Shown here: positions 1-17,437 of the stretch, piece by piece
Layout: each line of letters starts with the position of its first letter
Position numbering within the stretch: position 1 is the first letter of the stretch
Source of the DNA: Escherichia coli
GTDB taxonomy: Bacteria > Pseudomonadota > Gammaproteobacteria > Enterobacterales > Enterobacteriaceae
Strand: one strand, 5' to 3'
Assembly: GCF_051903065.1 (NCBI RefSeq)
Contig: NZ_CP178438.1
DNA length: 64,000 nucleotides
Notes under the pieces: generated by a model
What the model was told of the DNA's origin: nothing
The model's database searches: none
The model's input: only the letters and a program-made list of their open reading frames with translations
Program-made: the position numbers and the translations under genes

Positions 1-87
1 TTCACCGCAATGACGTATACCAAAAGCAAAACGTTTAAAACCGAAAATGGTGCCCGTCGCTGGCTGGAAAGAAACTCAGGTGAGTGA
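1..87 (+). CDS. ydfA: 3' end of a small prophage ORF (ydfA-like), truncated by the window edge
   Basis: Frame-1 open from position 1 to TGA at 85-87 (…MTYTKSKTFKTENGARRWLERNSGE*). Position immediately upstream of ydfB/ydfC/dicF matches the K-12 Qin dicA-ydfABC-dicF-dicB arrangement as I recall it. Confidence 0.4.
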   Translation, partial: FTAMTYTKSKTFKTENGARRWLERNSGE

Positions 88-88
88 T

Positions 89-217
89 ATGGATTTCGAC
101 ACAATCATGGAAAAGGCTTACGAAGAATACTTCGAAGGCCTTGCCGAAGGCGAAGAAGCTCTCAGCTTCAGTGAGTTTAAACAGGCGCTTTCCAGTTCGG
201 CAAAATCTAACGGCTGA
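89..217 (+). CDS. ydfB: small prophage protein, 42 aa
   Basis: ATG at 89, 42 codons (MDFDTIMEKAYEEYFEGLAEGEEALSFSEFKQALSSSAKSNG), TGA at 215-217. Below the 60-aa track cutoff. Size and position fit ydfB. Confidence 0.5.
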   Translation: MDFDTIMEKAYEEYFEGLAEGEEALSFSEFKQALSSSAKSNG

Positions 218-246
218 TAAGCGAAACAGCACCGCGAGGAATCAGT

Positions 247-465
247 ATGCAGAAACGAGAACCCGTCATCATCGCGCCAGACTATACCGATGATGAACTT
301 TATGAGTGGATGCGCCAGAAAATTAATGCAGCGCAGGATCTGAAATGGGCTAATGAAGCCAGGGCTAAGCAGGCTGAAAATCTGTCCGCTCTGGAGCAGG
401 ATATCACCAATCTGGAAAAAGCAGCGGCATTAAGCATTGCCAGAATGATTACATACCCGCGTTAG
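247..465 (+). CDS. ydfC: small prophage protein, 72 aa
   Basis: ORF track 247..465 (MQKREPVIIAPDYTDDELYEWMRQ…). Size and position immediately upstream of dicF fit ydfC. Confidence 0.6.
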   Translation: MQKREPVIIAPDYTDDELYEWMRQKINAAQDLKWANEARAKQAENLSALEQDITNLEKAAALSIARMITYPR

Positions 466-805
466 TAGCTAATCAACAAAGCTAAGGTTAGTAATTAAGG
501 AGTTCTCCACGGGTGAGGTGGAGTGCGTGCGCCGGACACGGGTGCGCATCCGGAACTGACAGTTTACTGAAAGGATATTTCCCTGAAAAGTCAGACCATA
601 ACGCGAAAGCGCACGGCGAGGTAGCTGGTTCATAGATAGCCTGTCGTTAAATTTTCATCGACCGTGCGCTTCCGGTTGTGGCAACCCGCGAAATGGCGCG
701 GCGGTAAGTATGGCGGGGTTATTCCTTCCCCGTTGAGGACACCGGGTTGTCAGGTTGACCATACGCTTAAGTGACAACCCCGCTGCAACGCCCTCTGTTA
801 TCAAT

Positions 806-863
806 TTTCTGGTGACGTTTGGCGGTATCAGTTTTACTCCGTGACTGCTCTGCCGCCCTTTTT
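806..863 (+). ncRNA. dicF: DicF antisense sRNA (ftsZ translation inhibitor) with intrinsic terminator
   Basis: Sequence tttctggtgacgtttggcggtatcagttttactccgtgactgctctgccgcccttttt: ggcgg (821-825) pairs with ccgcc (853-857), followed by a T-run at 859-863. Matches the DicF sequence as I recall it and sits between ydfC and dicB. Confidence 0.7.
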
Positions 864-1032
864 AAAGTGAATTTTGTGATGTGGTGAATGCGGCTGAGCG
901 CACGCGGAACAGTTAAAACCAAAAACAGTGTTATGGGTGGATTCTCTGTATCCGGCGTTAATTGTTAACTGGTTAACGTCACCTGGAGGCACCAGGCACT
1001 GCATCACAAAATTCATTGTTGAGGACGCGATA

Positions 1033-1056
1033 ATGAAAACGTTATTACCAAACGTT
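1033..1056 (+). pseudogene. dicB: dicB 5' fragment (first 8 codons, MKTLLPNV) interrupted by IS1
   Basis: ATG at 1033, atg aaa acg tta tta cca aac gtt = MKTLLPNV, the N-terminus of the cell-division inhibitor DicB. The IS1 inverted repeat begins at 1057. Confidence 0.7.
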
Positions 1057-1071
1057 GGTAATGACTCCAAC

Positions 1072-1575
1072 TTATTGATAGTGTTTTATGTTCAGATAAT
1101 GCCCGATGACTTTGTCATGCAGCTCCACCGATTTTGAGAACGACAGCGACTTCCGTCCCAGCCGTGCCAGGTGCTGCCTCAGATTCAGGTTATGCCGCTC
1201 AATTCGCTGCGTATATCGCTTGCTGATTACGTGCAGCTTTCCCTTCAGGCGGGATTCATACAGCGGACAGCCATCCGTCATCCATATCACCACGTCAAAG
1301 GGTGACAGCAGGCTCATAAGACGCCCCAGCGTCGCCATAGTGCGTTCACCGAATACGTGCGCAACAACCGTCTTCCGGAGCCTGTCATACGCGTAAAACA
1401 GCCAGCGCTGGCGCGATTTAGCCCCGACATAGCCCCACTGTTCGTCCATTTCCGCGCAGACGATGACGTCACTGCCCGGCTGTATGCGCGAGGTTACCGA
1501 CTGCGGCCTGAGTTTTTTAAGTGACGTAAAATCGTGTTGAGGCCAACGCCCATAATGCGGGCTGTTGCCCGGCAT
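1072..1575 (-). CDS. insB: IS1 transposase InsB (expressed as InsAB' by -1 frameshift)
   Basis: 167-aa [30 protein letters not shown]…, recognisable as IS1 InsB. Confidence 0.95.
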
Positions 1576-1769
1576 CCAACGCCATTCATGGCCATATCAA
1601 TGATTTTCTGGTGCGTACCGGGTTGAGAAGCGGTGTAAGTGAACTGCAGTTGCCATGTTTTACGGCAGTGAGAGCAGAGATAGCGCTGATGTCCGGCGGT
1701 GCTTTTGCCGTTACGCACCACCCCGTCAGTAGCTGAACAGGAGGGACAGCTGATAGAAACAGAAGCCAC
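1494..1769 (-). CDS. insA: IS1 InsA (repressor / N-terminal part of transposase)
   Basis: 91-aa [46 protein letters not shown]…, recognisable as IS1 InsA with its zinc-finger-like CxxC…CxxC. Confidence 0.95.
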
Positions 1770-1824
1770 TGGAGCACCTCAAAAACACCATCATACACTA
1801 AATCAGTAAGTTGGCAGCATCACC

Positions 1825-2928
1825 GCAAAACAGTTTCCCTCCTCACGCAATCTGGAAAAATTTGGTGAGGCCCGACAAGATTTAACCATAAAAGAACTGG
1901 CTGAAAAATTTCTGGCACTGAAAGAAACTGAAGTCGCCAAAACATCACTCAACACATACCGTGCCGTCATCAAAAATATCCTAAGCATAATCGGTGAAAA
2001 AAATCTTGCCTCATCGATTAATAAAGAAAAATTACTGGAGGTTCGTAAAGAGCTACTGACTGGATACCAGATCCCCAAAAGTAACTATATTGTTACACAA
2101 CCAGGGAGATCGGCTGTAACTGTAAATAATTACATGACAAATCTTAACGCCGTGTTCCAGTTTGGTGTTGATAACGGTTACCTGGCAGATAATCCGTTTA
2201 AGGGGATCTCGCCATTAAAGGAATCAAGAACCATTCCGGATCCTCTTTCGCGGGAGGAATTTATCCGTCTTATCGATGCGTGCAGAAATCAGCAAGCAAA
2301 AAATTTATGGTGTGTTTCTGTTTATACTGGCGTTCGCCCTGGTGAGCTGTGTGCACTTGGATGGGAGGACATAGATCTGAAAAATGGAACAATGATGATC
2401 AGGAGAAATTTAGCAAAAGACCGTTTCACGGTACCAAAAACACAGGCGGGAACCAATCGGGTCATTCATCTTATTAAGCCAGCAATCGACGCTCTCCGGA
2501 GTCAGATGACATTAACGAGACTGAGCAAAGAGCATATCATTGATGTTCACCTCAGAGAGTATGGCAGAACAGAAAAACAAAAATGCACCTTTGTTTTTCA
2601 ACCTGAAGTATCAGCGAGAGTAAAAAATTATGGTGACCATTTTACCGTTGACTCAATAAGGCAGATGTGGGACGCAGCGATAAAACGTGCCGGACTCCGC
2701 CATCGAAAATCATATCAGTCGAGACATACTTATGCCTGCTGGTCGCTGACTGCTGGTGCTAACCCGGCATTTATAGCAAACCAGATGGGCCATGCAGATG
2801 CGCAAATGGTATTTCAGGTATACGGAAAATGGATGTCTGAAAACAATAATGCACAGGTAGCTTTGTTAAATACACAGTTAAGCGAGTTTGCCCCAACCAT
2901 ACCCCATAACGAAGCAATGAAAAATTAA
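1825..2928 (+). pseudogene. intQ: prophage tyrosine integrase, 5'-truncated (open frame of 368 codons continues from the IS1 junction; no start codon until 2134)
   Basis: Reading frame open from the IS1 end to TAA at 2926-2928. C-terminal catalytic domain motifs are visible (…GVRPGELCALGWEDIDL…, …HLIKPAIDAL…, …SRHTYACWSLTAGANPAFIANQMGHAD…). The N-terminus is missing. Confidence 0.8.
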
Positions 2929-3115
2929 TTTAATATTTATCAAATAGTTGACACGTATGACTCTTGAAATCCATAAATTCAAGCGCAGTGCCCAGCCATC
3001 CCGATACTGCTGCTTTCACCAAATCCTTAGTGCTTCTTTCGTGTTTTTCTATTGTCATAATGGTTATCTCTAAAAAAGAGGTAAGATGCGTACTACTTAC
3101 TCGCCGTTATTGGTA

Positions 3116-4135
3116 TTATTCAGAAAAAGTGAGTAAGACTTTGCAGCAATGTTTTTGATCCTGTTCAAATAAACTAATGGCATCAGCAACATGCTGGAAA
3201 TCAAACGTATGGGTAATTAATTTTTCTGGTTTAATTAACCCTTTACTTAACCAGTCGATAACGACCGGAAATTTATTTGCATTTAAGCGTGAAGAGAAAA
3301 TAGAGAGTTCTTTTCCGGTAATTCCTTGCTGAATCACTTCAGACGGTTCACTGGAGAAGCCCATCAATACAATACGTGCCGCTGGAGAAGCCAGCGTTAC
3401 GGCCTCTTTCAGGATAGAAGGATGACAAGCCGCATCAATAATTAATGTCGGCTTTATGCCTTTTTCAGCGAAAATCTCGCCAAGCGGTGTCTGGCTGTTA
3501 TTAATCACCCAGTCAGCCCCGCTCTCTTTCGCTTTTTCCAGTCGTTCATCAATGCGATCGGCAACAATCACATTTTTAACGTTATAGACGCCTTTTAATA
3601 CCTGAACGATCGTCAGGCCGATTGGACCGGCACCATAAACCAGAACGGTATCATTTTCAGTCGGTTGACCATGTCCGGTTACGTTAGCCGCAATGGTAAA
3701 AGGTTCGATCATCACCGCATATTGATCGGCCACTGCTTCAGGAATTTTCCACGCATTTTTTGCCGGAACCACAGCATATTCACTGAAACCACCGTCAACA
3801 TGCACACCTAATACAGCGAGTGTCGTACAAACGTTCGGCTTACCTATAGAGCACGGATAGCAATGACCACAGCTGACCACCGGATCGACAGCAACACGTT
3901 CACCGACTCTGGCGCTTTCCACACCTTCACCCACCGCATCAATGACGCCAAAGAATTCATGTCCAATGACGCGCGGATATTTCGCAAAAGGATTATGCCC
4001 ACGATAAATATGGCTATCTGAACCACAAATTCCGGCAAGTTTTACTTTTACTCGAACTTCACCCGCTGACGGGGTGGGTATTTCACGTTCGATAATCGCC
4101 AGTTGATTCGGTTTTTCAATTAAAATGCTTTTCAT
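3116..4135 (-). CDS. rspB: Zn-dependent alcohol/polyol dehydrogenase-like starvation-sensing protein
   Basis: Start set at the MKSILIEKPNQL Met. GHEF and Cys-rich Zn-binding motifs and a Rossmann GAGPIG are present. Confidence 0.9.
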   Translation of the reverse strand: MKSILIEKPNQLAIIEREIPTPSAGEVRVKVKLAGICGSDSHIYRGHNPFAKYPRVIGHEFFGVIDAVGEGVESARVGERVAVDPVVSCGHCYPCSIGKPNVCTTLAVLGVHVDGGFSEYAVVPAKNAWKIPEAVADQYAVMIEPFTIAANVTGHGQPTENDTVLVYGAGPIGLTIVQVLKGVYNVKNVIVADRIDERLEKAKESGADWVINNSQTPLGEIFAEKGIKPTLIIDAACHPSILKEAVTLASPAARIVLMGFSSEPSEVIQQGITGKELSIFSSRLNANKFPVVIDWLSKGLIKPEKLITHTFDFQHVADAISLFEQDQKHCCKVLLTFSE

Positions 4136-4146
4136 TAACTTACTCC

Positions 4147-5361
4147 TTACCAGTTCCACAGCGTGCCATCTTCCAGACGTGCGACTGGTAGATAAGCAGG
4201 TTCATAGGGATATTTCGCCGCCAGCTTTTCATCGAATTCGATACCAAGACCCGGTTTGTCTCCCGGATGCATATAGCCGTTATCGAAAGTCCAGTTGTGC
4301 GGGAAGACTTCGAGCATTTGTTCGGAATAACCCATGTATTCCTGGACACCGAAATTGGGGACCCACAGATCAAAGTGCAGCGCCGCAGCCATGCAGACTG
4401 GTGACAAATCGGAAGGACCGTGTGAGCCAGTACGTACCTGATACAACGAAGCAAAATCGGCAATCCGGCGCATACCGGTAATTCCGCCTGCATGGGTCAG
4501 CGTGGTGCGGATATAATCGATGAGTTGCTCTTCAATCAGTTGTTTGCAGTCCCAGATGCTGTTGAAGACTTCACCCACAGCGATGGGTGTGACGGTATGT
4601 TGGCGAATGAGACGGAAGCATTCCTGGTTTTCCGCAGGCGTCGGGTCTTCCATCCAGAACATGCGATAATCTTCAATGCTTTTACCAAAGCGCGCCGCTT
4701 CAATAGGCGTTAAGCGATGGTGCATGTCATGCAGCAAATGTTCATTAAAACCAAACTTGTTACGTACCGCGTCAAACAATTTCGGCATGAAATCGAGGTA
4801 TTTCTCCGTCGACCACAGCTGCTCTTCCGGCCACTGTCCTTTGGTTGCGGGTTCATAAGCCAGACCTTTACCTTTCGACATGCCGTAGGTGGTTTTCATA
4901 CCAGGGATTCCGCACTGCACGCGGATGGCTTTGAATCCCAGCTCCTGATGACGGGCATAATCATCCAGAGCTTCATCAATACTGTGACCGGTGGTATGGC
5001 AATAAACCATCACCCCTTCACGAGATGCGCCGCCGAGTAACTGGTAAAGCGGCATGTTGGCAGCTTTGGCTTTAATATCCCACAGCGCCATATCAACCGC
5101 TGAAATGGCCGACATCGTAACCGGACCGCGACGCCAGTAAGCACCTTTATAGAAAAACTGCCAGATATCTTCGATACGGTGCGCATCGCGACCAATAAGC
5201 TGCGGACAAAGGTGATCCTGCAAATAAGAGGCCACGGAAAGCTCACGTCCATTGAGGGTGGCATCCCCAAGGCCCGTAATACCGTCCTCAGTGGTGATTT
5301 TTAATGTGACGAAATTACGCCCCGGACAGGTAACAAAAACTTCAGCCTTTACGATCTTCAT
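4147..5361 (-). CDS. rspA: enolase-superfamily dehydratase (mannonate dehydratase-like) starvation-sensing protein
   Basis: Start set at [17 protein letters not shown]…. Forms a tandem operon with rspB. Confidence 0.9.
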
Positions 5362-5566
5362 GTTCGATTCCTTGCATCGCTTGTCGTGATGCATGAAATC
5401 TACGCAACTGAGCTACTACCATACAAGTATGAAGATCAAAAAAAGCCAGAGTGATCACAAAAAAAGGCGTATATTTGCGCTGTGAATGGTTGACAAAAGA
5501 TGAAATAGAATACCTTTTATCAGCTGACACTTCCTCGTATCTTATTGATAAAATGGATTTATGTTC

Positions 5567-5893
5567 CTACGTACGCCCCCAGCCCGCAACAATGATCAAC
5601 ATGCCGCAAAGCGCAATCAACGCCCCCGTCCAGTCATAAAGAGTCAGTTTCACGCCATCCACAACGCGCAGCCACATCAACGCCGTGCAGACATAAACGC
5701 CACCATAAGCCGCGTAAACACGCCCACTCGCCGCAGGATGCAACGTTAACAACCAGACAAACAGAGCCAGTGAAATCCCCGCCGGAAGCAACAGCCAGAT
5801 ACTGGCGTTTCGTTTTAACCACAACCAGGGCAGAAAGCATCCAATAATTTCACACAGCGCAGTAGCAAAAAATAGTAACGTTGTTTTAATCAT
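5567..5893 (-). CDS. ynfA: UPF0060 small inner-membrane protein
   Basis: Hydrophobic 108-aa product starting [18 protein letters not shown]. Confidence 0.85.
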
Positions 5894-6027
5894 CTTTGTC
5901 ACTTATTGACATCATGTATAGTTATAGGGCGACATAATATCATCAATATAAACACCCTCTTGGTACGTTTTGCGTCCGCAGTGGATGGTGTAGAATCACC
6001 TTTAATCATTCACACAGGGAATGAATT

Positions 6028-6369
6028 ATGAAAATCACTCTCAGCAAACGAATCGGCCTGCTCGCTTTTCTGCTGCCTTGCGCACTGGCATTGAGCACAA
6101 CTGTTCATGCCGAAACTAACAAACTGGTGATTGAGTCTGGCGACAGTGCACAAAGCCGCCAGCACGCCGCTATGGAAAAAGAGCAATGGAATGACACGCG
6201 CAATCTGCGTCAGAAAGTGAATAAACGCACTGAAAAAGAGTGGGATAAAGCCGACGCCGCTTTTGATAACCGCGATAAATGTGAGCAAAGCGCCAACATC
6301 AATGCCTACTGGGAGCCCAATACTTTGCGCTGCCTGGACCGTCGAACTGGCCGCGTTATTACCCCCTAA
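6028..6369 (+). CDS. ynfB: secreted/periplasmic protein of unknown function (UPF0482)
   Basis: 113 aa with an N-terminal signal peptide ([28 protein letters not shown]). Confidence 0.85.
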
Positions 6370-6403
6370 CCTGTTATTGATTTAAGGAATGTAAGGACAC
6401 GTT

Positions 6404-6964
6404 ATGCCAAGCGCCCACAGTGTTAAGCTACGCCCGCTGGAGCGTGAAGATTTACGCTATGTACATCAACTCGACAATAACGCCAGTGTGATGCGTTACT
6501 GGTTTGAGGAACCCTACGAAGCCTTTGTTGAACTCTCTGATCTGTATGATAAGCATATTCACGATCAGAGCGAACGACGCTTTGTGGTGGAATGTGACGG
6601 CGAAAAAGCCGGTCTGGTGGAGTTGGTGGAAATTAACCATGTACATCGCCGCGCAGAATTTCAGATAATTATCTCCCCGGAGTATCAGGGGAAAGGTCTG
6701 GCAACCCGTGCCGCCAAATTAGCAATGGACTATGGCTTCACCGTTCTCAATCTCTATAAGCTGTATCTGATCGTCGATAAAGAGAATGAAAAAGCGATTC
6801 ACATTTACCGCAAGCTTGGCTTTACGGTTGAAGGTGAATTGATGCATGAGTTCTTTATTAATGGTCAATATCGTAATGCCATTCGCATGTGTATATTCCA
6901 GCATCAGTATCTGGCAGAGCACAAAACACCGGGTCAGACTCTCCTGAAGCCGACCGCACAATAG
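6404..6964 (+). CDS. speG: spermidine N1-acetyltransferase (GNAT family)
   Basis: 186 aa, [23 protein letters not shown]…; recognisable as SpeG. Confidence 0.95.
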
Positions 6965-6966
6965 CA

Positions 6967-7677
6967 TTAATAATAATCGATTGTATTTTTGATGGTGTAA
7001 ACCCGTTCGACGGCGGGTTTTACTCCTTCATCAACAATGATTAGCTGACAGTCCACCGGATTGGCGTGACTGTCATATTCACAGCTCTGTTTTACATTAC
7101 CAACCCGTTGATTGTTCAGTAAAGTAACCGCTGTGTAATCTAATTTTTTGATCGGATCCGTTGATGGCGTGGCGCTGACAGATAATGTTTTGTCGTTACT
7201 TTTCGTGGTTTTACCTAGCGGATACCCCTGATCATCATAGCGATATTCCATCTGCATCTGTTTGCTGCTGGCTTTAATCACGAAGCCATTATCATCGGTT
7301 TCCCAACTCACCCCGGCGGAAGGTAATTCCGCTAGCTGGCATTTTCCCTGTAAACGTACTCTCTTCTCCAGCGTCTCAGCATCACGGTAATAATTGGCGT
7401 CCAGTACCAGAGCGACCACGGTATTATTTTCCAGATCCAGTAATTCGAGTGAATCAAAACAGCCTTCTTCCGACAAAGTCCCCGAAACACGTTTCGTCAC
7501 TTCACCTTGCTCATCCATTAATGTCTGAGTGAAATCTTTTACCGGACCACGCAGCGGATCAAAATCGAATTCATTAGAGAAACTGGCCATCTCAGGGGTA
7601 AATGAAAGTGTTACCTCTGTGCGGTCACATCCTGTGAGGAATATCGCGAGTAAGCATGGTAGTAATTTGTATTTCAC
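6967..7677 (-). CDS. ynfC: lipoprotein of unknown function (UPF0257)
   Basis: GTG start inferred at 7677 (…VKYKLLPCLLAIFLTGCD, lipobox LTGC). The track ORF has an upstream in-frame ATG, so the true start is uncertain. Confidence 0.8.
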   Translation of the reverse strand: MKYKLLPCLLAIFLTGCDRTEVTLSFTPEMASFSNEFDFDPLRGPVKDFTQTLMDEQGEVTKRVSGTLSEEGCFDSLELLDLENNTVVALVLDANYYRDAETLEKRVRLQGKCQLAELPSAGVSWETDDNGFVIKASSKQMQMEYRYDDQGYPLGKTTKSNDKTLSVSATPSTDPIKKLDYTAVTLLNNQRVGNVKQSCEYDSHANPVDCQLIIVDEGVKPAVERVYTIKNTIDYY

Positions 7678-7784
7678 AACAGTCACCAGAGAGTAGAGAT
7701 GATTCTCAATCATAGTAGCAAATACAGTACTTTACACGTTAAATGCTATGCTTAAAGAAGTTATCTTCGCGTAAGGAGCTTATG

Positions 7785-8090
7785 ATGAAACTCTCAACCT
7801 GCTGTGCCGCGCTTCTGCTCGCCCTCGCCTCACCCGCGGTACTCGCCGCGCCGGGATCCTGTGAGCGCATACAGAGCGATATATCACAGCGCATTATCAA
7901 TAATGGCGTACCCGAAAGCAGCTTCACGTTAAGTATTGTACCCAATGACCAGGTTGATCAGCCTGATTCCCAGGTCGTCGGGCATTGTGCTAATGATACG
8001 CATAAAATTCTCTACACCCGCACCACCAGCGGTAACGTCTCTGCTCCCGCGCAGTCTACCCAGGATGGCGCGCCTGCCGAACTGCAGTAA
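7785..8090 (+). CDS. ynfD: secreted protein of unknown function (DUF1161)
   Basis: Start at the second Met of MMKLSTCCAALLLALASPAVLA (signal peptide); 101 aa. Confidence 0.8.
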   Translation: MKLSTCCAALLLALASPAVLAAPGSCERIQSDISQRIINNGVPESSFTLSIVPNDQVDQPDSQVVGHCANDTHKILYTRTTSGNVSAPAQSTQDGAPAELQ

Positions 8091-8174
8091 TACATTATCG
8101 ACTGAACGCCGGATACGACGCATCCGGCGATTTGAACATATAACATAACCCACCTTATTACTCATACCCTTCTA

Positions 8175-8188
8175 TTGATATGGATTAA
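8175..8188 (+). promoter_or_regulatory. candidate FNR-type site (TTGAT-N4-ATTAA) upstream of ynfE
   Basis: ttgatatggattaa matches TTGAT-N4-ATCAA with one mismatch, about 100 bp upstream of the ynfE start. The ynfEFGH operon is known to be anaerobically expressed. Confidence 0.35.
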
Positions 8189-8287
8189 TAATTCTTAACC
8201 CAAAATGGGTAGACTCCCTCTATTGTTAGCGCGCTAAATATTCAATATATAAACTTTTATATAACGATAAAGAACAGGGAGTGAGTT

Positions 8288-10714
8288 ATGTCCAAAAATG
8301 AACAAATGGTGGGCATCAGCCGCAGAACACTCGTTAAATCTACCGCGATAGGTTCTCTGGCGCTGGCTGCAGGCGGTTTTTCTTTACCGTTTACCCTGCA
8401 CAGTGCAGCAGCAGCGGTACAACAGGCCCGCGAAAAAGTGGTCTGGGGTGCCTGTTCTGTCAACTGTGGTAGCCGCTGTGCACTTCGTCTACATGTTAAA
8501 GATAATGAAGTGACCTGGGTGGAAACTGACAATACCGGCAGCGATGAGTACGGCAACCATCAGGTACGCGCCTGTTTGCGCGGTCGCTCCATCCGCCGGC
8601 GTATTAATCATCCCGATCGCTTGAATTACCCAATGAAACGCGTGGGCAAACGCGGCGAAGGCAAATTCGAACGGATTAGCTGGGATGAAGCCCTGGATAC
8701 TATCGCCAGTAGCCTGAAGAAAACCGTCGAACAATATGGCAATGAGGCTGTATATATTCAGTACTCTTCGGGGATCGTTGGCGGCAATATGACCCGCTCT
8801 TCGCCATCAGCCTCGGCGGTCAAACGCCTGATGAACTGCTACGGCGGTTCACTCAATCAGTATGGCTCCTACAGCACCGCACAAATTTCCTGTGCCATGC
8901 CCTACACCTACGGCAGTAATGATGGCAACAGCACCACGGATATTGAAAACAGCAAGCTGGTCGTGATGTTTGGTAACAACCCGGCAGAAACCCGCATGAG
9001 CGGCGGTGGCATCACTTATCTTCTTGAAAAAGCGCGCGAGAAATCGAACGCCAAAATGATTGTTATCGATCCGCGATATACCGATACGGCTGCTGGTCGT
9101 GAGGATGAATGGCTTCCTATTCGCCCGGGCACCGATGCCGCGCTGGTTGCGGGGATTGCCTGGGTATTGATTAACGAAAATCTCGTTGATCAACCTTTTC
9201 TCGATAAATACTGCGTCGGCTATGACGAAAAAACCTTACCCGCAGATGCACCCAAAAATGGTCACTATAAAGCCTATATTCTTGGTGAAGGTGATGATAA
9301 CACAGCGAAAACGCCGCAGTGGGCTTCGCAAATTACCGGTATCCCGGTGGACCGTATCATCAAACTGGCGCGTGAAATTGGCACAGCAAAACCCGCTTAT
9401 ATCTGCCAGGGCTGGGGGCCGCAACGCCAGGCAAACGGCGAGCTGACTGCACGCGCTATTGCTATGTTGCCTATTTTGACGGGCAATGTCGGCATCAGCG
9501 GCGGAAATAGTGGCGCGCGTGAATCGACCTATACCATTACCATAGAGCGACTGCCGGTGCTGGATAATCCGGTCAAAACGTCAATTTCCTGCTTCAGTTG
9601 GACAGATGCTATCGATCATGGTCCGCAAATGACGGCAATCCGCGACGGCGTCCGCGGCAAAGATAAACTGGATGTGCCCATTAAGTTCATCTGGAACTAC
9701 GCGGGAAATACCCTGGTTAATCAGCATTCTGACATCAACAAAACGCATGAAATTCTGCAAGACGAATCGAAATGCGAAATGATTGTGGTCATCGAAAACT
9801 TTATGACCTCATCGGCAAAATATGCCGACATTCTGCTGCCAGACCTGATGACCGTTGAGCAGGAAGATATTATTCCTAACGACTACGCCGGTAACATGGG
9901 ATATCTCATTTTCCTCCAGCCTGTCACCAGCGAAAAATTCGAACGCAAACCGATTTACTGGATCCTGAGTGAAGTCGCGAAACGTCTTGGACCTGACGTC
10001 TATCAAAAGTTCACAGAAGGTCGTACGCAGGAACAATGGTTACAACATCTGTACGCCAAAATGCTTGCCAAAGATCCGGCGTTACCGTCTTACGACGAAC
10101 TGAAAAAAATGGGTATCTATAAGCGTAAAGATCCCAATGGTCATTTTGTCGCCTACAAAGCATTTCGTGACGACCCCGAGGCAAATCCACTTAAAACACC
10201 TTCCGGTAAGATTGAAATTTATTCCAGCAAGCTGGCGGAAATTGCCCGTACCTGGGAACTGGAAAAAGATGAAGTGATAAGCCCACTGCCAGTTTATGCC
10301 TCTACCTTTGAAGGCTGGGACTCACCTGAACGTAGAACCTTCCCACTGCAACTGTTTGGTTTCCATTACAAATCCCGTACTCACTCGACCTACGGCAATA
10401 TTGATCTCCTGAAGGCTGCCTGCCGTCAGGAGGTGTGGATCAACCCTATAGATGCGCAGAAACGTGGGATTGCCAACGGCGATATGGTGCGGGTGTTTAA
10501 CCATCGTGGCGAAGTTCGGCTACCAGCCAAAGTGACACCACGTATTCTCCCTGGAGTTAGCGCTATGGGCCAGGGAGCCTGGCACGAGGCCAATATGTCT
10601 GGCGATAAAATCGACCATGGAGGCTGTGTGAATACGCTAACCACTCTGCGCCCTTCACCACTGGCGAAGGGAAACCCGCAGCATACGAATCTGGTCGAGA
10701 TCGAAAAAATATAA
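8288..10714 (+). CDS. ynfE: Tat-exported molybdopterin (bis-MGD) oxidoreductase catalytic subunit, DmsA paralog (selenate reductase)
   Basis: 808 aa with twin-arginine signal (SRRTLVKSTAIGSLALAAGG) and an N-terminal Cys cluster (CSVNCGSRC). Confidence 0.95.
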   Translation: MSKNEQMVGISRRTLVKSTAIGSLALAAGGFSLPFTLHSAAAAVQQAREKVVWGACSVNCGSRCALRLHVKDNEVTWVETDNTGSDEYGNHQVRACLRGRSIRRRINHPDRLNYPMKRVGKRGEGKFERISWDEALDTIASSLKKTVEQYGNEAVYIQYSSGIVGGNMTRSSPSASAVKRLMNCYGGSLNQYGSYSTAQISCAMPYTYGSNDGNSTTDIENSKLVVMFGNNPAETRMSGGGITYLLEKAREKSNAKMIVIDPRYTDTAAGREDEWLPIRPGTDAALVAGIAWVLINENLVDQPFLDKYCVGYDEKTLPADAPKNGHYKAYILGEGDDNTAKTPQWASQITGIPVDRIIKLAREIGTAKPAYICQGWGPQRQANGELTARAIAMLPILTGNVGISGGNSGARESTYTITIERLPVLDNPVKTSISCFSWTDAIDHGPQMTAIRDGVRGKDKLDVPIKFIWNYAGNTLVNQHSDINKTHEILQDESKCEMIVVIENFMTSSAKYADILLPDLMTVEQEDIIPNDYAGNMGYLIFLQPVTSEKFERKPIYWILSEVAKRLGPDVYQKFTEGRTQEQWLQHLYAKMLAKDPALPSYDELKKMGIYKRKDPNGHFVAYKAFRDDPEANPLKTPSGKIEIYSSKLAEIARTWELEKDEVISPLPVYASTFEGWDSPERRTFPLQLFGFHYKSRTHSTYGNIDLLKAACRQEVWINPIDAQKRGIANGDMVRVFNHRGEVRLPAKVTPRILPGVSAMGQGAWHEANMSGDKIDHGGCVNTLTTLRPSPLAKGNPQHTNLVEIEKI

Positions 10715-10774
10715 CCCACTACAACCATAAATTCTGGCATGACATTTTGTTTGAAAAGCAATAAGTGAGTAATG

Positions 10775-13198
10775 ATGAAAATCCATACCACAGAGGCGCT
10801 CATGAAGGCTGAAATCAGCCGTAGAAGTCTGATGAAAACCTCCGCACTTGGCAGTCTTGCGCTGGCAAGCAGTGCTTTCACTCTGCCATTTTCCCAAATG
10901 GTCCGGGCGGCACAGGCTCCGGTAGAAGAGAAAGCGGTCTGGAGTTCCTGCACCGTTAACTGCGGGAGCCGCTGTCTGTTACGTTTGCATGTGAAAGATG
11001 ACACCGTGTACTGGGTGGAGTCTGATACGACAGGTGACGACGTCTACGGTAATCATCAGGTTCGAGCGTGTTTACGCGGGCGCTCTATCCGCCGACGGAT
11101 GAATCATCCTGATAGGTTGAAATATCCCATGAAGCGCGTCGGCAAGCGCGGTGAAGGTAAATTTGAACGGATAAGTTGGGACGAAGCCCTGGATACCATC
11201 AGTGATAATCTTCGGCGGATCCTAAAAGATTACGGCAATGAGGCTGTACATGTCCTGTACGGAACAGGTGTAGATGGCGGAAACATCACCAACTCAAACG
11301 TCCCGTACCGTCTGATGAACTCTTGCGGTGGTTTTCTCAGTCGCTATGGCAGCTACAGTACCGCACAGATCAGTGCCGCAATGAGTTATATGTTCGGTGC
11401 CAATGATGGCAACAGCCCGGATGATATCGCCAATACGAAACTGGTCGTTATGTTCGGAAATAACCCGGCAGAAACGCGGATGAGCGGTGGTGGTGTCACT
11501 TACTACGTCGAGCAAGCCCGCGAACGTTCAAACGCACGCATGATCGTCATCGATCCACGTTATAACGACACAGCTGCCGGGCGTGAAGATGAATGGCTGC
11601 CCATTCGCCCTGGCACCGATGGCGCACTGGCCTGTGCGATTGCCTGGGTGCTGATTACTGAAAACATGGTCGATCAGCCATTTCTCGACAAATATTGTGT
11701 TGGTTACGATGAAAAAACGCTGCCCGCCAACGCACCACGTAACGCGCATTATAAAGCCTATATTCTGGGCGAAGGGCCTGACGGCATAGCTAAAACGCCG
11801 GAATGGGCAGCAAAAATCACCAGCATTCCGGCAGAAAAAATTATCCAGTTGGCACGAGAGATCGGTTCAGCAAAACCTGCTTATATTTGTCAGGGTTGGG
11901 GGCCACAACGACATTCCAACGGCGAGCAAACATCCCGCGCTATTGCCATGCTTTCCGTTCTCACCGGTAACGTCGGCATAAACGGCGGCAACTCAGGTGT
12001 ACGCGAAGGTAGCTGGGATCTGGGGGTAGAATGGTTCCCGATGCTTAAGAATCCTGTTAAAACGCAGATTTCCGTCTTTACATGGACAGATGCCATCGAC
12101 CATGGTACGGAAATGACCGCGACCCGTGATGGTGTTCGTGGAAAAGAAAAACTGGATGTCCCCATCAAGTTTTTATGGTGCTACGCCAGTAACACATTGA
12201 TCAATCAACATGGCGACATCAATCACACCCATGAGGTGCTTCAGGATGACAGCAAGTGCGAGATGATTGTTGGCATTGACCACTTCATGACGGCCTCGGC
12301 TAAGTATTGCGATATCCTGTTGCCCGACCTGATGCCAACAGAGCAAGAAGACCTTATCTCTCATGAATCTGCAGGGAATATGGGCTATGTGATCCTCGCC
12401 CAACCCGCAACCTCAGCAAAATTTGAACGCAAACCCATCTACTGGATGCTGAGTGAAGTCGCCAAACGCTTAGGACCGGACGTTTATCAAACCTTTACTG
12501 AAGGTCGCAGTCAGCATGAATGGATCAAATATCTCCATGCGAAAACGAAGGAACGTAACCCTGAGATGCCCGACTACGAGGAGATGAAAACGACCGGGAT
12601 CTTTAAGAAAAAATGCCCGGAAGAACACTACGTCGCTTTCCGCGCATTCCGTGAAGATCCACAGGCAAACCCGTTGAAAACACCTTCGGGGAAAATCGAA
12701 ATTTATTCTGAACGACTGGCGAAGATTGCAGATACCTGGGAATTGAAAAAAGATGAAATTATTCATCCCCTTCCTGCGTATACCCCAGGTTTTGATGGCT
12801 GGGACGATCCCCTGCGGAAAACCTATCCACTGCAGTTAACGGGCTTCCACTACAAAGCGCGTACCCACTCCAGCTACGGCAATATTGATGTGTTACAGCA
12901 GGCCTGCCCACAAGAGGTGTGGATCAACCCCATTGATGCTCAGGCTCGCGGTATCCGTCATGGCGATACCGTGCGGGTATTTAACAATAATGGAGAAATG
13001 CTGATTGCCGCAAAAGTGACTCCGCGTATTCTGCCTGGCGTTACCGCCATCGGGCAAGGTGCGTGGCTTAAAGCGGATATGTTTGGTGACCGGGTCGATC
13101 ACGGCGGCAGTATTAATATTCTGACCTCTCACCGCCCTTCACCGCTGGCAAAGGGAAACCCGTCGCACAGCAATCTTGTCCAGATCGAAAAGGTTTAA
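10775..13198 (+). CDS. ynfF: Tat-exported molybdopterin oxidoreductase catalytic subunit, tandem paralog of ynfE
   Basis: Start at MKIHTTEALMKAEISRRSLMKT…. Aligns along its full length with the ynfE product. Confidence 0.95.
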   Translation: MKIHTTEALMKAEISRRSLMKTSALGSLALASSAFTLPFSQMVRAAQAPVEEKAVWSSCTVNCGSRCLLRLHVKDDTVYWVESDTTGDDVYGNHQVRACLRGRSIRRRMNHPDRLKYPMKRVGKRGEGKFERISWDEALDTISDNLRRILKDYGNEAVHVLYGTGVDGGNITNSNVPYRLMNSCGGFLSRYGSYSTAQISAAMSYMFGANDGNSPDDIANTKLVVMFGNNPAETRMSGGGVTYYVEQARERSNARMIVIDPRYNDTAAGREDEWLPIRPGTDGALACAIAWVLITENMVDQPFLDKYCVGYDEKTLPANAPRNAHYKAYILGEGPDGIAKTPEWAAKITSIPAEKIIQLAREIGSAKPAYICQGWGPQRHSNGEQTSRAIAMLSVLTGNVGINGGNSGVREGSWDLGVEWFPMLKNPVKTQISVFTWTDAIDHGTEMTATRDGVRGKEKLDVPIKFLWCYASNTLINQHGDINHTHEVLQDDSKCEMIVGIDHFMTASAKYCDILLPDLMPTEQEDLISHESAGNMGYVILAQPATSAKFERKPIYWMLSEVAKRLGPDVYQTFTEGRSQHEWIKYLHAKTKERNPEMPDYEEMKTTGIFKKKCPEEHYVAFRAFREDPQANPLKTPSGKIEIYSERLAKIADTWELKKDEIIHPLPAYTPGFDGWDDPLRKTYPLQLTGFHYKARTHSSYGNIDVLQQACPQEVWINPIDAQARGIRHGDTVRVFNNNGEMLIAAKVTPRILPGVTAIGQGAWLKADMFGDRVDHGGSINILTSHRPSPLAKGNPSHSNLVQIEKV

Positions 13199-13208
13199 GG
13201 AGTAGCCC

Positions 13209-13826
13209 ATGACCACACAATATGGATTTTTTATCGATTCCAGCCGCTGTACTGGCTGTAAAACCTGCGAACTGGCGTGCAAAGATTTTAAAGATCTTGG
13301 CCCGGAAGTCAGTTTCCGCCGTATTTATGAATATGCTGGCGGCGACTGGCAGGAAGATAATGGCGTCTGGCACCAGAACGTGTTCGCTTATTATCTCTCC
13401 ATCTCCTGTAACCATTGCGATGACCCCGCATGTACAAAAGTCTGCCCCAGCGGCGCAATGCATAAGCGTGAAGATGGCTTTGTGGTGGTTGATGAAGATG
13501 TTTGTATCGGCTGCCGCTACTGCCACATGGCTTGTCCGTACGGCGCACCACAGTACAATGCTGAAAAAGGGCACATGACGAAGTGCGATGGTTGTTATTC
13601 GCGCGTCGCCGAGGGGAAACAACCCATATGTGTCGAATCCTGCCCGCTGCGTGCACTTGAGTTCGGTCCAATTGAAGAGCTGCGCCAGAAGCACGGCACT
13701 CTTGCTGCCGTCGCGCCACTGCCGCGCGCGCATTTCACAAAACCCAATATCGTTATCAAACCTAACGCCAACAGCCGCCCGACCGGCGATACCACTGGTT
13801 ATCTGGCTAATCCGGAGGAAGTGTAA
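13209..13826 (+). CDS. ynfG: 4Fe-4S ferredoxin-type electron-transfer subunit (DmsB paralog)
   Basis: Four Cys clusters (CTGCKTCELAC, CNHCDDPACTKVCP, CIGCRYCHMACP, CDGC…CVESCP). Confidence 0.95.
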   Translation: MTTQYGFFIDSSRCTGCKTCELACKDFKDLGPEVSFRRIYEYAGGDWQEDNGVWHQNVFAYYLSISCNHCDDPACTKVCPSGAMHKREDGFVVVDEDVCIGCRYCHMACPYGAPQYNAEKGHMTKCDGCYSRVAEGKQPICVESCPLRALEFGPIEELRQKHGTLAAVAPLPRAHFTKPNIVIKPNANSRPTGDTTGYLANPEEV

Positions 13827-13827
13827 A

Positions 13828-14682
13828 ATGGGAAATGGATGGCATGAATGGCCACTGGTTATCTTTACCGTATTGGGTCAATGCGTAGTAGGCGCGCTGA
13901 TTGTTAGCGGAATTGGCTGGTTCGCCGCCAAAAATGACGCAGACCGTCAGCACATTGTTCGTGGCATGTTTTTCCTCTGGCTGTTGATGGGCATCGGGTT
14001 TATTGCCTCTGTCATGCACCTGGGATCGCCACTGCGGGCGTTTAACTCGCTGAATCGAATCGGAGCTTCTGGTCTGAGTAACGAGATTGCTGCCGGTTCC
14101 ATATTTTTTGCCGTTGGCGGACTATGGTGGCTGGTGGCGGTCATCGGTAAAATGCCGCAAGCGTTGGGGAAACTCTGGTTACTTGTCAGCATGGCGCTCG
14201 GCGTCATTTTCGTCTGGATGATGACCTGCGTGTATCAAATCGACACTGTGCCAACCTGGCATAACGGTTACACTACGCTGGCTTTCTTCCTGACGGTATT
14301 GTTGAGTGGTCCAATACTTGCTGCCGCAATTCTGCGGGCAGCCCGCGTTACATTTAATACCACACCATTTGCCATCATTAGCGTTCTGGCGCTGATCGCT
14401 TGTGCCGGGGTGATTGTGCTGCAAGGTTTGTCTCTGTCGTCTATTCACTCATCCGTGCAACAAGCCAGCGCACTGGTACCAGATTACGCCTCCTTACAGG
14501 TCTGGCGTGTGGTATTGTTATGCGCAGGTCTAGGATGCTGGCTTTGTCCGCTCATACGTCGCCGTGAACCTCACGTTGCCGGACTTATTCTGGGGTTAAT
14601 CCTCATTCTTGGCGGTGAGATGATCGGGCGTGTGCTCTTTTATGGCCTGCACATGACGGTAGGAATGGCTATTGCAGGTTAA
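13828..14682 (+). CDS. ynfH: membrane anchor subunit (DmsC paralog)
   Basis: ATG at 13828, directly after the ynfG stop. Polytopic hydrophobic 284-aa product starting MGNGWHEWPLVIFTVLGQ. The track ORF is an artefactual 5' extension overlapping ynfG. Confidence 0.9.
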   Translation: MGNGWHEWPLVIFTVLGQCVVGALIVSGIGWFAAKNDADRQHIVRGMFFLWLLMGIGFIASVMHLGSPLRAFNSLNRIGASGLSNEIAAGSIFFAVGGLWWLVAVIGKMPQALGKLWLLVSMALGVIFVWMMTCVYQIDTVPTWHNGYTTLAFFLTVLLSGPILAAAILRAARVTFNTTPFAIISVLALIACAGVIVLQGLSLSSIHSSVQQASALVPDYASLQVWRVVLLCAGLGCWLCPLIRRREPHVAGLILGLILILGGEMIGRVLFYGLHMTVGMAIAG

Positions 14683-14724
14683 CAAATTGGTGCGGGGCAA
14701 CCCGCACATTTCAGGATGTTAGGA

Positions 14725-15339
14725 ATGACCCATTTTTCACAGCAAGATAATTTTTCTGTCGCGGCGCGCGTGTTGGGCGCGCTGTTTTATTACGCTCCAG
14801 AGAGTGCTGAAGCCGCACCTCTGGTTGCGGTACTCACCAGTGACGGCTGGGAAACTCAGTGGCCTCTACCAGAAGCGTCATTAGCGCCGCTGGCGACGGC
14901 TTTTCAGACACAGTGTGAAGAGACTCTCGCCCAGGCCTGGCAGCGTTTGTTTGTCGGCCCGTGGGCACTGCCGTCTCCGCCGTGGGGATCGGTCTGGCTG
15001 GATCGCGAATCTGTGCTGTTTGGCGATTCAACATTGGCACTTCGTCAGTGGATGCGCGAGAAAGGCATTCAGTTTGAAATGAAGCAAAATGAACCGGAAG
15101 ATCATTTTGGTTCATTGCTGTTGATGGCTGCGTGGTTGGCGGAGAATGGTCGCCAGACAGAATGCGAAGAATTGCTGGCATGGCACCTTTTTCCCTGGTC
15201 AACACGTTTTCTTGACGTTTTTATCGAAAAAGCAGAACACCCTTTCTACCGTGCACTGGGTGAACTGGCTCGCTTAACGCTGGCGCAATGGCAATCACAA
15301 CTGTTAATTCCTGTCGCGGTTAAACCATTCTTTCGATAG
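14725..15339 (+). CDS. dmsD: Tat proofreading chaperone for DMSO-reductase-family enzymes
   Basis: Start at MTHFSQQDNFSVAARVLGALFYY…; 204 aa; last gene of the ynfEFGH-dmsD operon. Confidence 0.9.
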   Translation: MTHFSQQDNFSVAARVLGALFYYAPESAEAAPLVAVLTSDGWETQWPLPEASLAPLATAFQTQCEETLAQAWQRLFVGPWALPSPPWGSVWLDRESVLFGDSTLALRQWMREKGIQFEMKQNEPEDHFGSLLLMAAWLAENGRQTECEELLAWHLFPWSTRFLDVFIEKAEHPFYRALGELARLTLAQWQSQLLIPVAVKPFFR

Positions 15340-15532
15340 GATCACTGTAATATTGCCGGATGGTGACGATTACGCGCGATTCGGCAACAATACGTTACAG
15401 TGTCACGTTTTTTGTCTCTTAAAGCACGCACTGCTTTTGCAGCTGGCCTCTTTTGCCGCAAAATAGTCGCCCGTGTTTCATTGCCCATTTCTGCTCATGC
15501 ATCATCTACACACCTATCCGGATCTGCGCACT

Positions 15533-16789
15533 ATGTTCCGCCGTCTGCTTATCGCAACAGTCGTCGGTATTCTCGCGGCCTTTGCCGTTGCCGGGTTTCG
15601 TCATGCGATGCTGCTACTGGAGTGGTTGTTCCTCAATAATGACTCCGGCAGTCTGGTCAATGCAGCGACAAACCTTTCCCCTTGGCGACGGCTGCTAACT
15701 CCGGCGCTCGGCGGACTGGCGGCGGGTTTGTTGCTGATGGGCTGGCAGAAATTTACCCAGCAACGCCCTCATGCGCCGACCGATTATATGGAAGCGTTGC
15801 AAACCGAGGGTCAGTTTGATTACGCAGCAAGCCTGGTTAAATCGCTTGCCTCTCTGCTGGTAGTAACCAGCGGCAGTGCAATTGGTCGCGAAGGTGCGAT
15901 GATTCTTTTAGCTGCCCTTGCCGCCTCCTGTTTTGCCCAACGTTTTACGCCACGCCAGGAGTGGAAATTATGGATCGCCTGTGGGGCCGCGGCGGGAATG
16001 GCTGCGGCCTATCGTGCCCCGCTTGCTGGCAGTTTATTTATAGCCGAAGTGCTGTTTGGCACTATGATGTTGGCCTCTCTCGGCCCGGTGATTATTTCCG
16101 CCGTCGTGGCATTGCTGGTTAGCAATCTGATTAATCATAGCGACGCGTTACTCTACAGCGTACAACTCTCAGTGACGGTTCAGGCTCGTGACTATGCGCT
16201 GATTATCAGTACAGGTGTGCTGGCAGGTCTGTGCGGACCACTGTTGTTAACGTTAATGAACGCCTGTCATCGTGGATTTGTAAGTCTCAAGCTTGCGCCG
16301 CCCTGGCAACTGGCACTGGGCGGCTTAATCGTGGGTCTGCTTTCCCTGTTCACACCTGCAGTGTGGGGCAACGGCTATAGCACCGTACAATCCTTTTTAA
16401 CCGCCCCGCCACTGTTAATGATCATTGCCGGGATCTTCCTCTGTAAACTGTGTGCCGTGCTGGCGAGTAGTGGTTCCGGCGCGCCCGGTGGTGTCTTTAC
16501 ACCGACGCTATTTATCGGTCTTGCCATTGGCATGTTGTATGGTCGTAGCCTGGGATTATGGTTCCCTGATGGCGAAGAAATTACGCTTTTACTCGGATTG
16601 ACCGGGATGGCGACACTGTTGGCGGCAACCACGCACGCGCCGATTATGTCGACGTTGATGATATCTGAAATGACCGGGGAGTATCAGCTACTCCCCGGTT
16701 TATTGATTGCCTGCGTAATTGCGTCGGTAATTTCGCGGACGTTACACCGTGACTCTATCTACCGCCAGCACACTGCGCAGCATAGCTAA
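15533..16789 (+). CDS. clcB: ClC-family voltage-gated chloride channel / H+-Cl- antiporter
   Basis: Start at [17 protein letters not shown]. ClC motifs GSAIGREG and GxFxP (GGVFTP) are present; 418 aa. Confidence 0.9.
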
Positions 16790-17437
16790 GCGGATGTATT
16801 GCCCCAGTTCACGCTGTTCGGCGCGCGGCAGATAAGGCAGTTCACCAATGAGCGGTGCCGGAAGTTTTTTACCGAGCACATCAATGATTTCCGCATAATG
16901 CGCCAGTCCTGGGTTGATTCGGTTAGCCACCCAGCCAATGAGCGGCAGCCCGTCGTTGGCAATCGCCTGAGCTGTTAGCAGTGCATGGTTAATGCAACCT
17001 TCCTGAATACCGACAACCATCAACACCGGCAGTTGTTCCTGCACCACCCATTCAGAGAGTGGACGCAAATCATTCATCAGACTGCGCCAGCCGCCAGTCC
17101 CTTCTACCACGACATGATCGACTTTTTCGGTCAGGTTTGCCAGGCCGTTTGAAATGAGGGTGTAATTGATTGGGCAACTGTGCGCCACGCTACTTTCTTC
17201 TTCGCTTAACGCGATAGGATTAACTGCTTCATAAGGCAGTTCGATGGTTGAAACACTCTGCAACACCAGGGCATCTTTATTACGCAGCCCTTCGGGTGTC
17301 TCTTTGCTCCCCTTCGCTACGGGTTTATATCCCGCAACCGTTTTTCCCTGGGAGGCTAACGCTTGTAGCAATGCGCGGGAAACCACCGTTTTCCCTACAG
17401 AAGTGTCTGTACCGGTAATAAAGAAACGCTTCAGCAT
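16742..17437 (-). CDS. ynfK: dethiobiotin synthetase paralog (BioD2)
   Basis: Start at [18 protein letters not shown] (P-loop); 231 aa. The 3' end overlaps the clcB 3' end by 48 bp on the opposite strand. Confidence 0.9.

Follow-up and report, generated by a model that had tools for sequence, protein, structure and literature searches.

The integrase-proximal junction of a Qin/mEp460-type lambdoid prophage in the 5' coding region of Escherichia coli ydfJ

Prophages at ydfJ and their nearest relatives

The ydfJ gene of Escherichia coli is a very common hot spot for prophage integration, one that Stx phages and effector-carrying phages use too, and exact att coordinates at this gene therefore help both in delimiting prophages and in designing PCR assays of site occupancy. 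In strain K-12 MG1655 the site is taken by the cryptic prophage Qin (NC_000913.3 1632277..1652745), whose right junction, running from intQ to rspB and including ynfP, has the same insertion point in ydfJ and the same 11-bp core as the junction described here. The latter lies in the window, which is the whole stretch of 64,000 nucleotides of E. coli contig NZ_CP178438.1 that was analysed. The limits of the annotated Qin feature run from base 1 of the attL core to the last base before the attR core, and according to Ramisetty and Sudhakari 2019 the integration of Qin at the ydfJ 5' end cost this gene its promoter and 28 codons for its N-terminus (PMC6379469). Since the limits of MG1655 Qin match the core and an att site in ydfJ has been published, the junction is an ordinary, already known feature. 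The 3' end of int and the phage arm of MG1655 Qin are nearly identical to those of the window, with a few SNPs, and the host flank is identical. The two differ in the source of the damage that they have suffered, which is an IS2 fragment at intQ and its neighbours in K-12 as against IS1 and an adjacent deletion in the window. They also differ in the length of the ynfP-type reading frame, which encodes 36 aa in K-12 Qin and 42 aa in the window, and in the size of the prophage, which is 20.5 kb for K-12 Qin against ~58 kb, with head and tail genes, in 23CRST027, the closest complete genome.

A second set of relatives comes from pathogenic strains. The PPydfJ prophages of STEC/EPEC in Nakamura et al. 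2021 are lambda-like, integrated in ydfJ, carry T3SS effector loci and form clusters (PMC8112680), and a figure legend there gives the att of ydfJ prophages as 18 or 19 bp, from an alignment of attP, attB, attL and attR (PMC8112680, S7 Fig legend). At the present locus the att sequences in their extended form are CTTGAAATCCATAATTCA (18 bp, attP) and CTGGAAATCCATAAATTCA (19 bp, attB), with which the published sizes are consistent, the match being drawn from the lengths stated in that legend.

How widely is the site occupied? A probe of 91 bp from attB matches without interruption in 2,012 of the 5,426 complete E. coli genomes and is mostly split in two places elsewhere. At least about half of the complete E. 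coli genomes thus have an occupied ydfJ site, a share comparable with the 48% reported earlier for the occurrence of Qin (PMC6379469).

The same integrase end and attachment site are also carried by free phages. In mEp460_ev081, Tritos, PhiR42_1 and HannyBb the 3' end of int together with attP is found at 98.8-99.0% identity, and their Int shares 99% identity with that of the window over residues 60-426. The attP sites of these phages are unrecombined, with a distal arm that begins TTCACAGGTG... at the place where the window has ydfJ sequence, and in mEp460_ev081 the integrase-proximal arm and the core match the window exactly. Tritos carries one substitution in its attP core, GAAATGCATAA instead of GAAATCCATAA (about 2067-2077 of the stretch examined), the arms being otherwise identical where aligned, and a mismatch placed inside the overlap should have an effect on integration into ydfJ.

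A further system for comparison is phage lambda, which has a C-O-C' core with a 7-bp overlap and a system made up of Int, Xis, IHF and arm-type sites. The present locus is like lambda in having a tyrosine integrase that is transcribed toward the adjacent att and a short identical core between inverted half-sites, and the likeness would extend to the arms, with an IHF consensus in one of them and repeated motifs in tandem in both, as far as these can be recognised from sequence. It is unlike lambda in the sequence of the core and in the target, which is inside ydfJ here and in the gal-bio interval for lambda. Furthermore, TG[CT]CCCA, the candidate for the arm motif, bears no relation to that of lambda, and the proximal arm here overlaps the coding end of int. 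The coordinates of the features that are discussed below are collected in Table 1.

Table 1. Features at and around the prophage junction, in window coordinates.
Feature	Position	Strand	Description
IS1, truncating the integrase gene	1057..1824	-	768 bp; ends readable; InsA/InsB ORFs
Truncated tyrosine integrase, intQ-type	1825..2928	+	Pfam Phage_integrase, E=2.9e-18
Candidate arm-type Int sites, tandem pair	2889..2906	+	inside the 3' coding end of int
Phage-derived arm, int stop to core	2929..2965		37 bp, 24% G+C
Chimeric 42-aa ORF, equivalent of K-12 ynfP	2930-3058	-	ydfJ codons 1-31 plus phage codons 32-42
Candidate IHF-binding site TATCAAATAGTTG	2938..2950	+	perfect match to WATCAANNNNTTR
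Probable 21-bp core-type site	2963..2983		inverted half-sites and 7-bp spacer, read from sequence
64-codon ORF, judged no gene	2964..3158	+	antisense to ydfJ 5' fragment and rspB 3' end
att core GAAATCCATAA	2966-2976		11 bp; same in attP, attB, attL and attR
Native rspB-ydfJ intergenic spacer	3059..3115	-	57 bp of host DNA; alignment with strain C1
rspB, Zn-dependent oxidoreductase	3116..4159	-	first intact host gene past the junction; Pfam ADH_N and ADH_zinc_N

The attachment core and the border between phage and host

The segment 2929-3158 is almost certainly the integrase-proximal P-O-B' junction of a Qin/mEp460-type lambdoid prophage that has inserted near the start of the ydfJ coding sequence, just downstream of rspB, and no evidence contradicting this assignment was met. 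Central to it is a four-way comparison of att sites, in which attP is taken from mEp460_ev081, attB from the intact ydfJ of strain C1, attL from the far junction of the prophage in 23CRST027, and the remaining junction from the window. Left of the core the window agrees with attP, and right of the core it agrees with attB. In the same way, the attP of mEp460_ev081 is made up of the left flank of the window, the core and the right flank of attL, and attB of the left flank of attL, the core and the right flank of the window. When attL, attB and attR are aligned, GAAATCCATAA is the sole segment common to all three, and it is present in the attL of 23CRST027 and MG1655 and in the attR of the window and MG1655, with flanks that are recombinant as expected. 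All 30 of the 30 bases compared immediately to the left of the core are those of the mEp460_ev081 attP and are unrelated to intact ydfJ, and a longer alignment carries the attP identity of the phage arm back to the int stop. The sequence-only reading of this DNA had reported that no att repeat is recognisable at the junction, a view that is overturned by the core shared among attP, attB, attL and attR, but its statement that the partner copy lies beyond the window holds, as GAAATCCATAA occurs only once within it (expected by chance, 0.03 copies).

The partner junction was read from 23CRST027 (NZ_AP045789.1), not from the genome of the window; window 1-3200 aligns with this chromosome from end to end, across the IS1 as well, at 99.9% identity. 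Its far junction adjoins a ydfJ pseudogene annotated 'missing N-terminus', and the distance between the two copies of the core is 57.9 kb. Outside the window, the Qin-like prophage of 23CRST027 has its portal gene interrupted by an element of ~12 kb (about 5091-16942 of the stretch examined), which carries an integrase of its own along with genes for a primase, SSB, a major capsid protein, head decoration and a small terminase, and looks like a capsid-forming phage satellite inside the prophage.

The border itself is fixed by the empty site. Strain C1 has no prophage here, its gene order being ydfI-ydfJ-rspB-rspA with an intact ydfJ of 455 aa, and the window is identical to it from 2966 to 3170, the end of the aligned stretch, and unrelated to it left of 2966. 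An alignment with prophage-free E. coli was the check that had been proposed from the sequence, where the prophage/chromosome junction was expected in the interval between integrase and rspB; that expectation is met, with a boundary at 2965/2966 that is not moved elsewhere. The population tells the same story, in that megablast with window 2700-3400 finds a match running through the integrase, the interval and rspB in 2,670 of 5,426 complete E. coli genomes. In other sampled genomes the match starts at query 264-271 (window 2963-2970) and extends rightward only, and most of the sampled genomes without the junction match annotate 'ydfJ: MHS family MFS transporter' at this place. The main value of the result is correct annotation, with the prophage ending at 2965/2966 and the supposed spacer recognised as a disrupted host transporter gene.

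The likeness between attP and attB reaches imperfectly beyond the core, as CTKGAAATCCATAA(A)TTCA, and around it the half-sites CTTGAAA (2963-2969) and ATTCAAG (2977-2983) flank the spacer TCCATAA, with CTTGAA and TTCAAG forming perfect reverse complements. This segment is probably a core-type site with a layout resembling the C-O-C' of lambda, and strand exchange must fall within the 11-bp identity. The junction adjoins the tyrosine integrase gene, the stop of which is 37 bp before the core.

These elements can be put together in a mechanism. A lambda-type tyrosine integrase inserted the phage into the 5' coding region of ydfJ by recombination between attP and attB within GAAATCCATAA, leaving one copy of the core at 2966-2976 and the other at the far end of the prophage. 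To the left of 2966 the DNA is that of the phage, namely the int 3' end and the AT-rich 37-bp arm, and from 2966 rightward that of the host, comprising ydfJ codons 1-31, the 57-bp spacer and rspB. The insertion splits ydfJ, with a 5' fragment that keeps the start codon and reads into phage DNA as the 42-aa ORF. By analogy with lambda, Int would bind the inverted core-type half-sites around the overlap region, and accessory sites may be provided by the IHF consensus in the arm and by the TG/ACCCCA motifs that stand in tandem near the end of int. Finally, since the IS1-associated deletion has removed xis along with codons 1-59 of int, the prophage's own enzymes would no longer be able to use the junction.

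The phage arm, the integrase and the state of the element

The arm between int and the core contains, with TATCAAATAGTTG, a putative IHF site that ends 15 bp before the core. The pattern WATCAANNNNTTR has 8 matches in the 64 kb against 3.0 expected, one of them in the 37-bp arm. A diverged relative of the site is available for comparison in E. coli O157:H7 TX 376-2 (4220-4420 of the stretch examined), where a truncated integrase is followed by unrecombined attP-like sequence. There the core is succeeded by a distal arm that is related to that of mEp460 for ~150 bp, and then by a dinI-like gene and IS elements, and this prophage remnant is not integrated by way of this att site. Its attP-like sequence keeps the IHF consensus (TATCAATTAGTTA), and it is the bases just after it that change.

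Candidate arm-type sites for Int are found farther from the core. The motif TG[CT]CCCA occurs in four copies in the attP of mEp460_ev081, at -77, -66, +130 and +141 and on one strand, within the region from -300 to +400 of the core, and with a motif derived after the data were seen, as this one was, shuffled sequences have a mean of 0.1 copies and none of 2000 reaches 4. The diverged O157 attP-like sequence has the motif at the same four places. The tandem pairs are consistent with arm-type Int sites, and the proximal pair appears in the window as TGCCCCA (2889-2895) and TACCCCA (2900-2906), 11 bp apart. The second of these differs by a G-to-A SNP (TGCCCCA to TACCCCA) that also turns residue 418 of Int from Met to Ile, such that a single base would matter for a candidate binding site and for the Int protein alike.

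A near-copy of the attachment sequence lies within the int coding region at 2838-2858, where 18 of the 21 bases of TGAAAACAATAATGCACAGGT agree with the core of attP and its distal flank (TGAAATCCATAATTCACAGGT), a score that 0 of 300 shuffles reach; by eye, the agreement falls to 13 of 21 in the diverged O157 attP-like sequence. This near-copy may be a secondary Int site or else a coincidence preserved by coding constraint, and it could serve as an extra site for Int binding, for instance in autoregulation. A description of the tandem TG[CT]CCCA pairs, the IHF site or the 7-7-7 core was not met in the papers searched, though none was specifically sought.

The integrase of the window retains residues 60-426 out of the 426 aa of mEp460_ev081 Int, 364 of these 367 residues being identical by BLASTP, and the 59 N-terminal residues that are missing hold the arm-binding domain. 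RefSeq annotates the same int gene in 23CRST027 as 'incomplete, missing N-terminus', and the IS1 there as an IS1A-family transposase. The insertion sequence abuts codon 8 of dicB on its left and codon 60 of int on its right, and no target-site duplication is found at it, the 9 bp at its two ends being different. Intact relatives carry an exonuclease, an excisionase and a full int at the position of IS1, and in comparison with them the 3' part of dicB, ydfD, the exonuclease gene, xis and the 5' end of int have gone. Beyond this gap, in the dic region of Qin, the small RNA DicF is present at 807-858 (+), as a full-length match to Rfam RF00039 with 76.7 bits.

Because xis and the N-terminal domain of Int are absent, self-excision is unlikely, and the prophage has probably been locked in place since the IS1-associated deletion. 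Could the junction nevertheless still work as an excision site, with Int and Xis supplied in trans by a resident or infecting phage of the mEp460 type? Phages with a 99% identical Int exist, and there is little or no damage to the core, the IHF-like site or the proximal arm motifs, although one of these motifs is altered here by the G-to-A change to TACCCCA. Such rescue by a helper is judged unlikely, and it would in any case complement, and not conflict with, the assignment of the segment as the junction of a ydfJ prophage.

The host side of the junction and its small reading frames

The first 31 codons of ydfJ, which encodes an MHS-family transporter, occupy 2966-3058 on the minus strand, with the ATG at 3058-3056, and the insertion point is around codons 28-31. 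Reading on into the phage arm gives the 42-aa ORF, whose phage part, codons 32-42 and the stop, is 2930-2965. Its product would have the sequence MTIEKHERSTKDLVKAAVSGWLGTALEFMDF followed by KSHTCQLFDKY, of which residues 1-31, MTIEKHERSTKDLVKAAVSGWLGTALEFMDF, are identical to those of the intact YdfJ (455 aa) of strain C1. The first 34 residues show one mismatch to K-12 YnfP, T for A at position 34, and K-12 ynfP (b4534) is the same ORF with an earlier stop, at 36 aa, owing to SNPs in the phage arm. YnfP of K-12 has been detected by chromosomal epitope (SPA) tagging (PMC6001520), and a K-12 ynfP mutant is reported to recover more slowly from nitrogen starvation (bioRxiv 10.1101/2020.03.30.016519). 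By extension from K-12 YnfP, whose C-terminus differs, the 42-aa ORF may also be translated. A YnfP-type peptide with a function of its own, built from the YdfJ N-terminus and a strain-variable phage tail (36 or 42 aa in all), would fit the slower recovery reported for the K-12 mutant, but that this peptide, and likewise the att anatomy with its near-copy, is functional can be put forward only as a tentative and rather doubtful proposal.

On the plus strand the interval is crossed by the 64-codon frame that opens with TTG at 2964-2966, a codon whose first two bases come from the phage arm and whose third is the start of the core. Might this be a real gene at the prophage border, either a moron or one created by the junction? 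The frame is indeed open and its TTG start is a product of the junction, yet the frame also exists in the empty site, where it does not begin until a GTG eight codons later and stays open for 56 codons, so its openness is independent of the phage. No Shine-Dalgarno-like sequence is visible upstream of the TTG, no promoter-like site was found for it in the scan of 2850-3250, and it runs antisense to the start of ydfJ/ynfP and to the 3' end of rspB. Pfam gives no match for it, nor for the 42-aa ORF on the other strand, and no gene is annotated on the plus strand at this position in the RefSeq records examined. A genuine gene here is very improbable, and the frame is regarded as a chance antisense one. 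The sequence-only reading had described a 64-codon frame that overlaps the rspB 3' end and lacks recognisable features, and had left it without annotation; this description is accurate, and the decision was right. The ORF that is worth annotating is the ydfJ 5' fragment of ynfP type on the minus strand.

The layout of the interval had also been given correctly in that reading. The stop codon of the integrase frame is at 2926-2928 and that of rspB at 3116-3118 (-), which leaves a gap of 187 bp with a G+C content of 37.4% against 50.1% for the whole window, as AT-rich as had been stated. Nor is there a tRNA or tmRNA gene anywhere in the 64-kb window (ARAGORN, 0 genes), again as had been reported, and an Rfam scan of window 1-3400 matched only DicF, far from the junction. 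The phage integrated here into a protein-coding gene and not into one for a tRNA or tmRNA. What does not hold is the treatment of the interval as an anonymous spacer, for the first part of the ydfJ coding sequence makes up 93 bp of this AT-rich DNA and the insertion is intragenic. That reading also passed over the minus-strand ORF at 2930-3058.

The low G+C content (37%), which is often seen in phage arms, might be taken to mean that all 187 bp are phage DNA and that the boundary is elsewhere, for example at or past the rspB stop. There is next to no chance of this, as 2966-3170 is base for base that of prophage-free C1 with its intact 455-aa ydfJ, which confines the phage-specific part to 2929-2965, and the alternative is refuted by the C1 alignment and by that of attL, attB and attR. 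Equally negligible is the idea that the 11-bp repeat is the target-site duplication of a transposition-like insertion by a Mu-like phage or an IS: a direct repeat of 11 bp flanking an inserted element is formally compatible with it, but this idea is ruled out by the presence of the core in the attP of free phage, where it pre-exists integration beside a tyrosine integrase and an excisionase gene, while the similarity between attP and attB continues imperfectly past the core (CTKGAAATCCATAA(A)TTCA), the insertion position is the same in thousands of genomes and intact relatives encode no transposase beside the junction.

The rspB-proximal part of the interval, the 57 bp between rspB and ydfJ, is unchanged in prophage-free strains. 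A terminator or structured element between these two genes was considered and dropped, since a scan of window 2850-3250 contained no promoter-like or terminator-like sites and the RNA fold of the spacer is not better than that of shuffled sequences (z=0.09). The annotated length of rspB is 1020 bp in all matching genomes, which places its start ~24 bp inside the ORF that is listed as extending to 4159.
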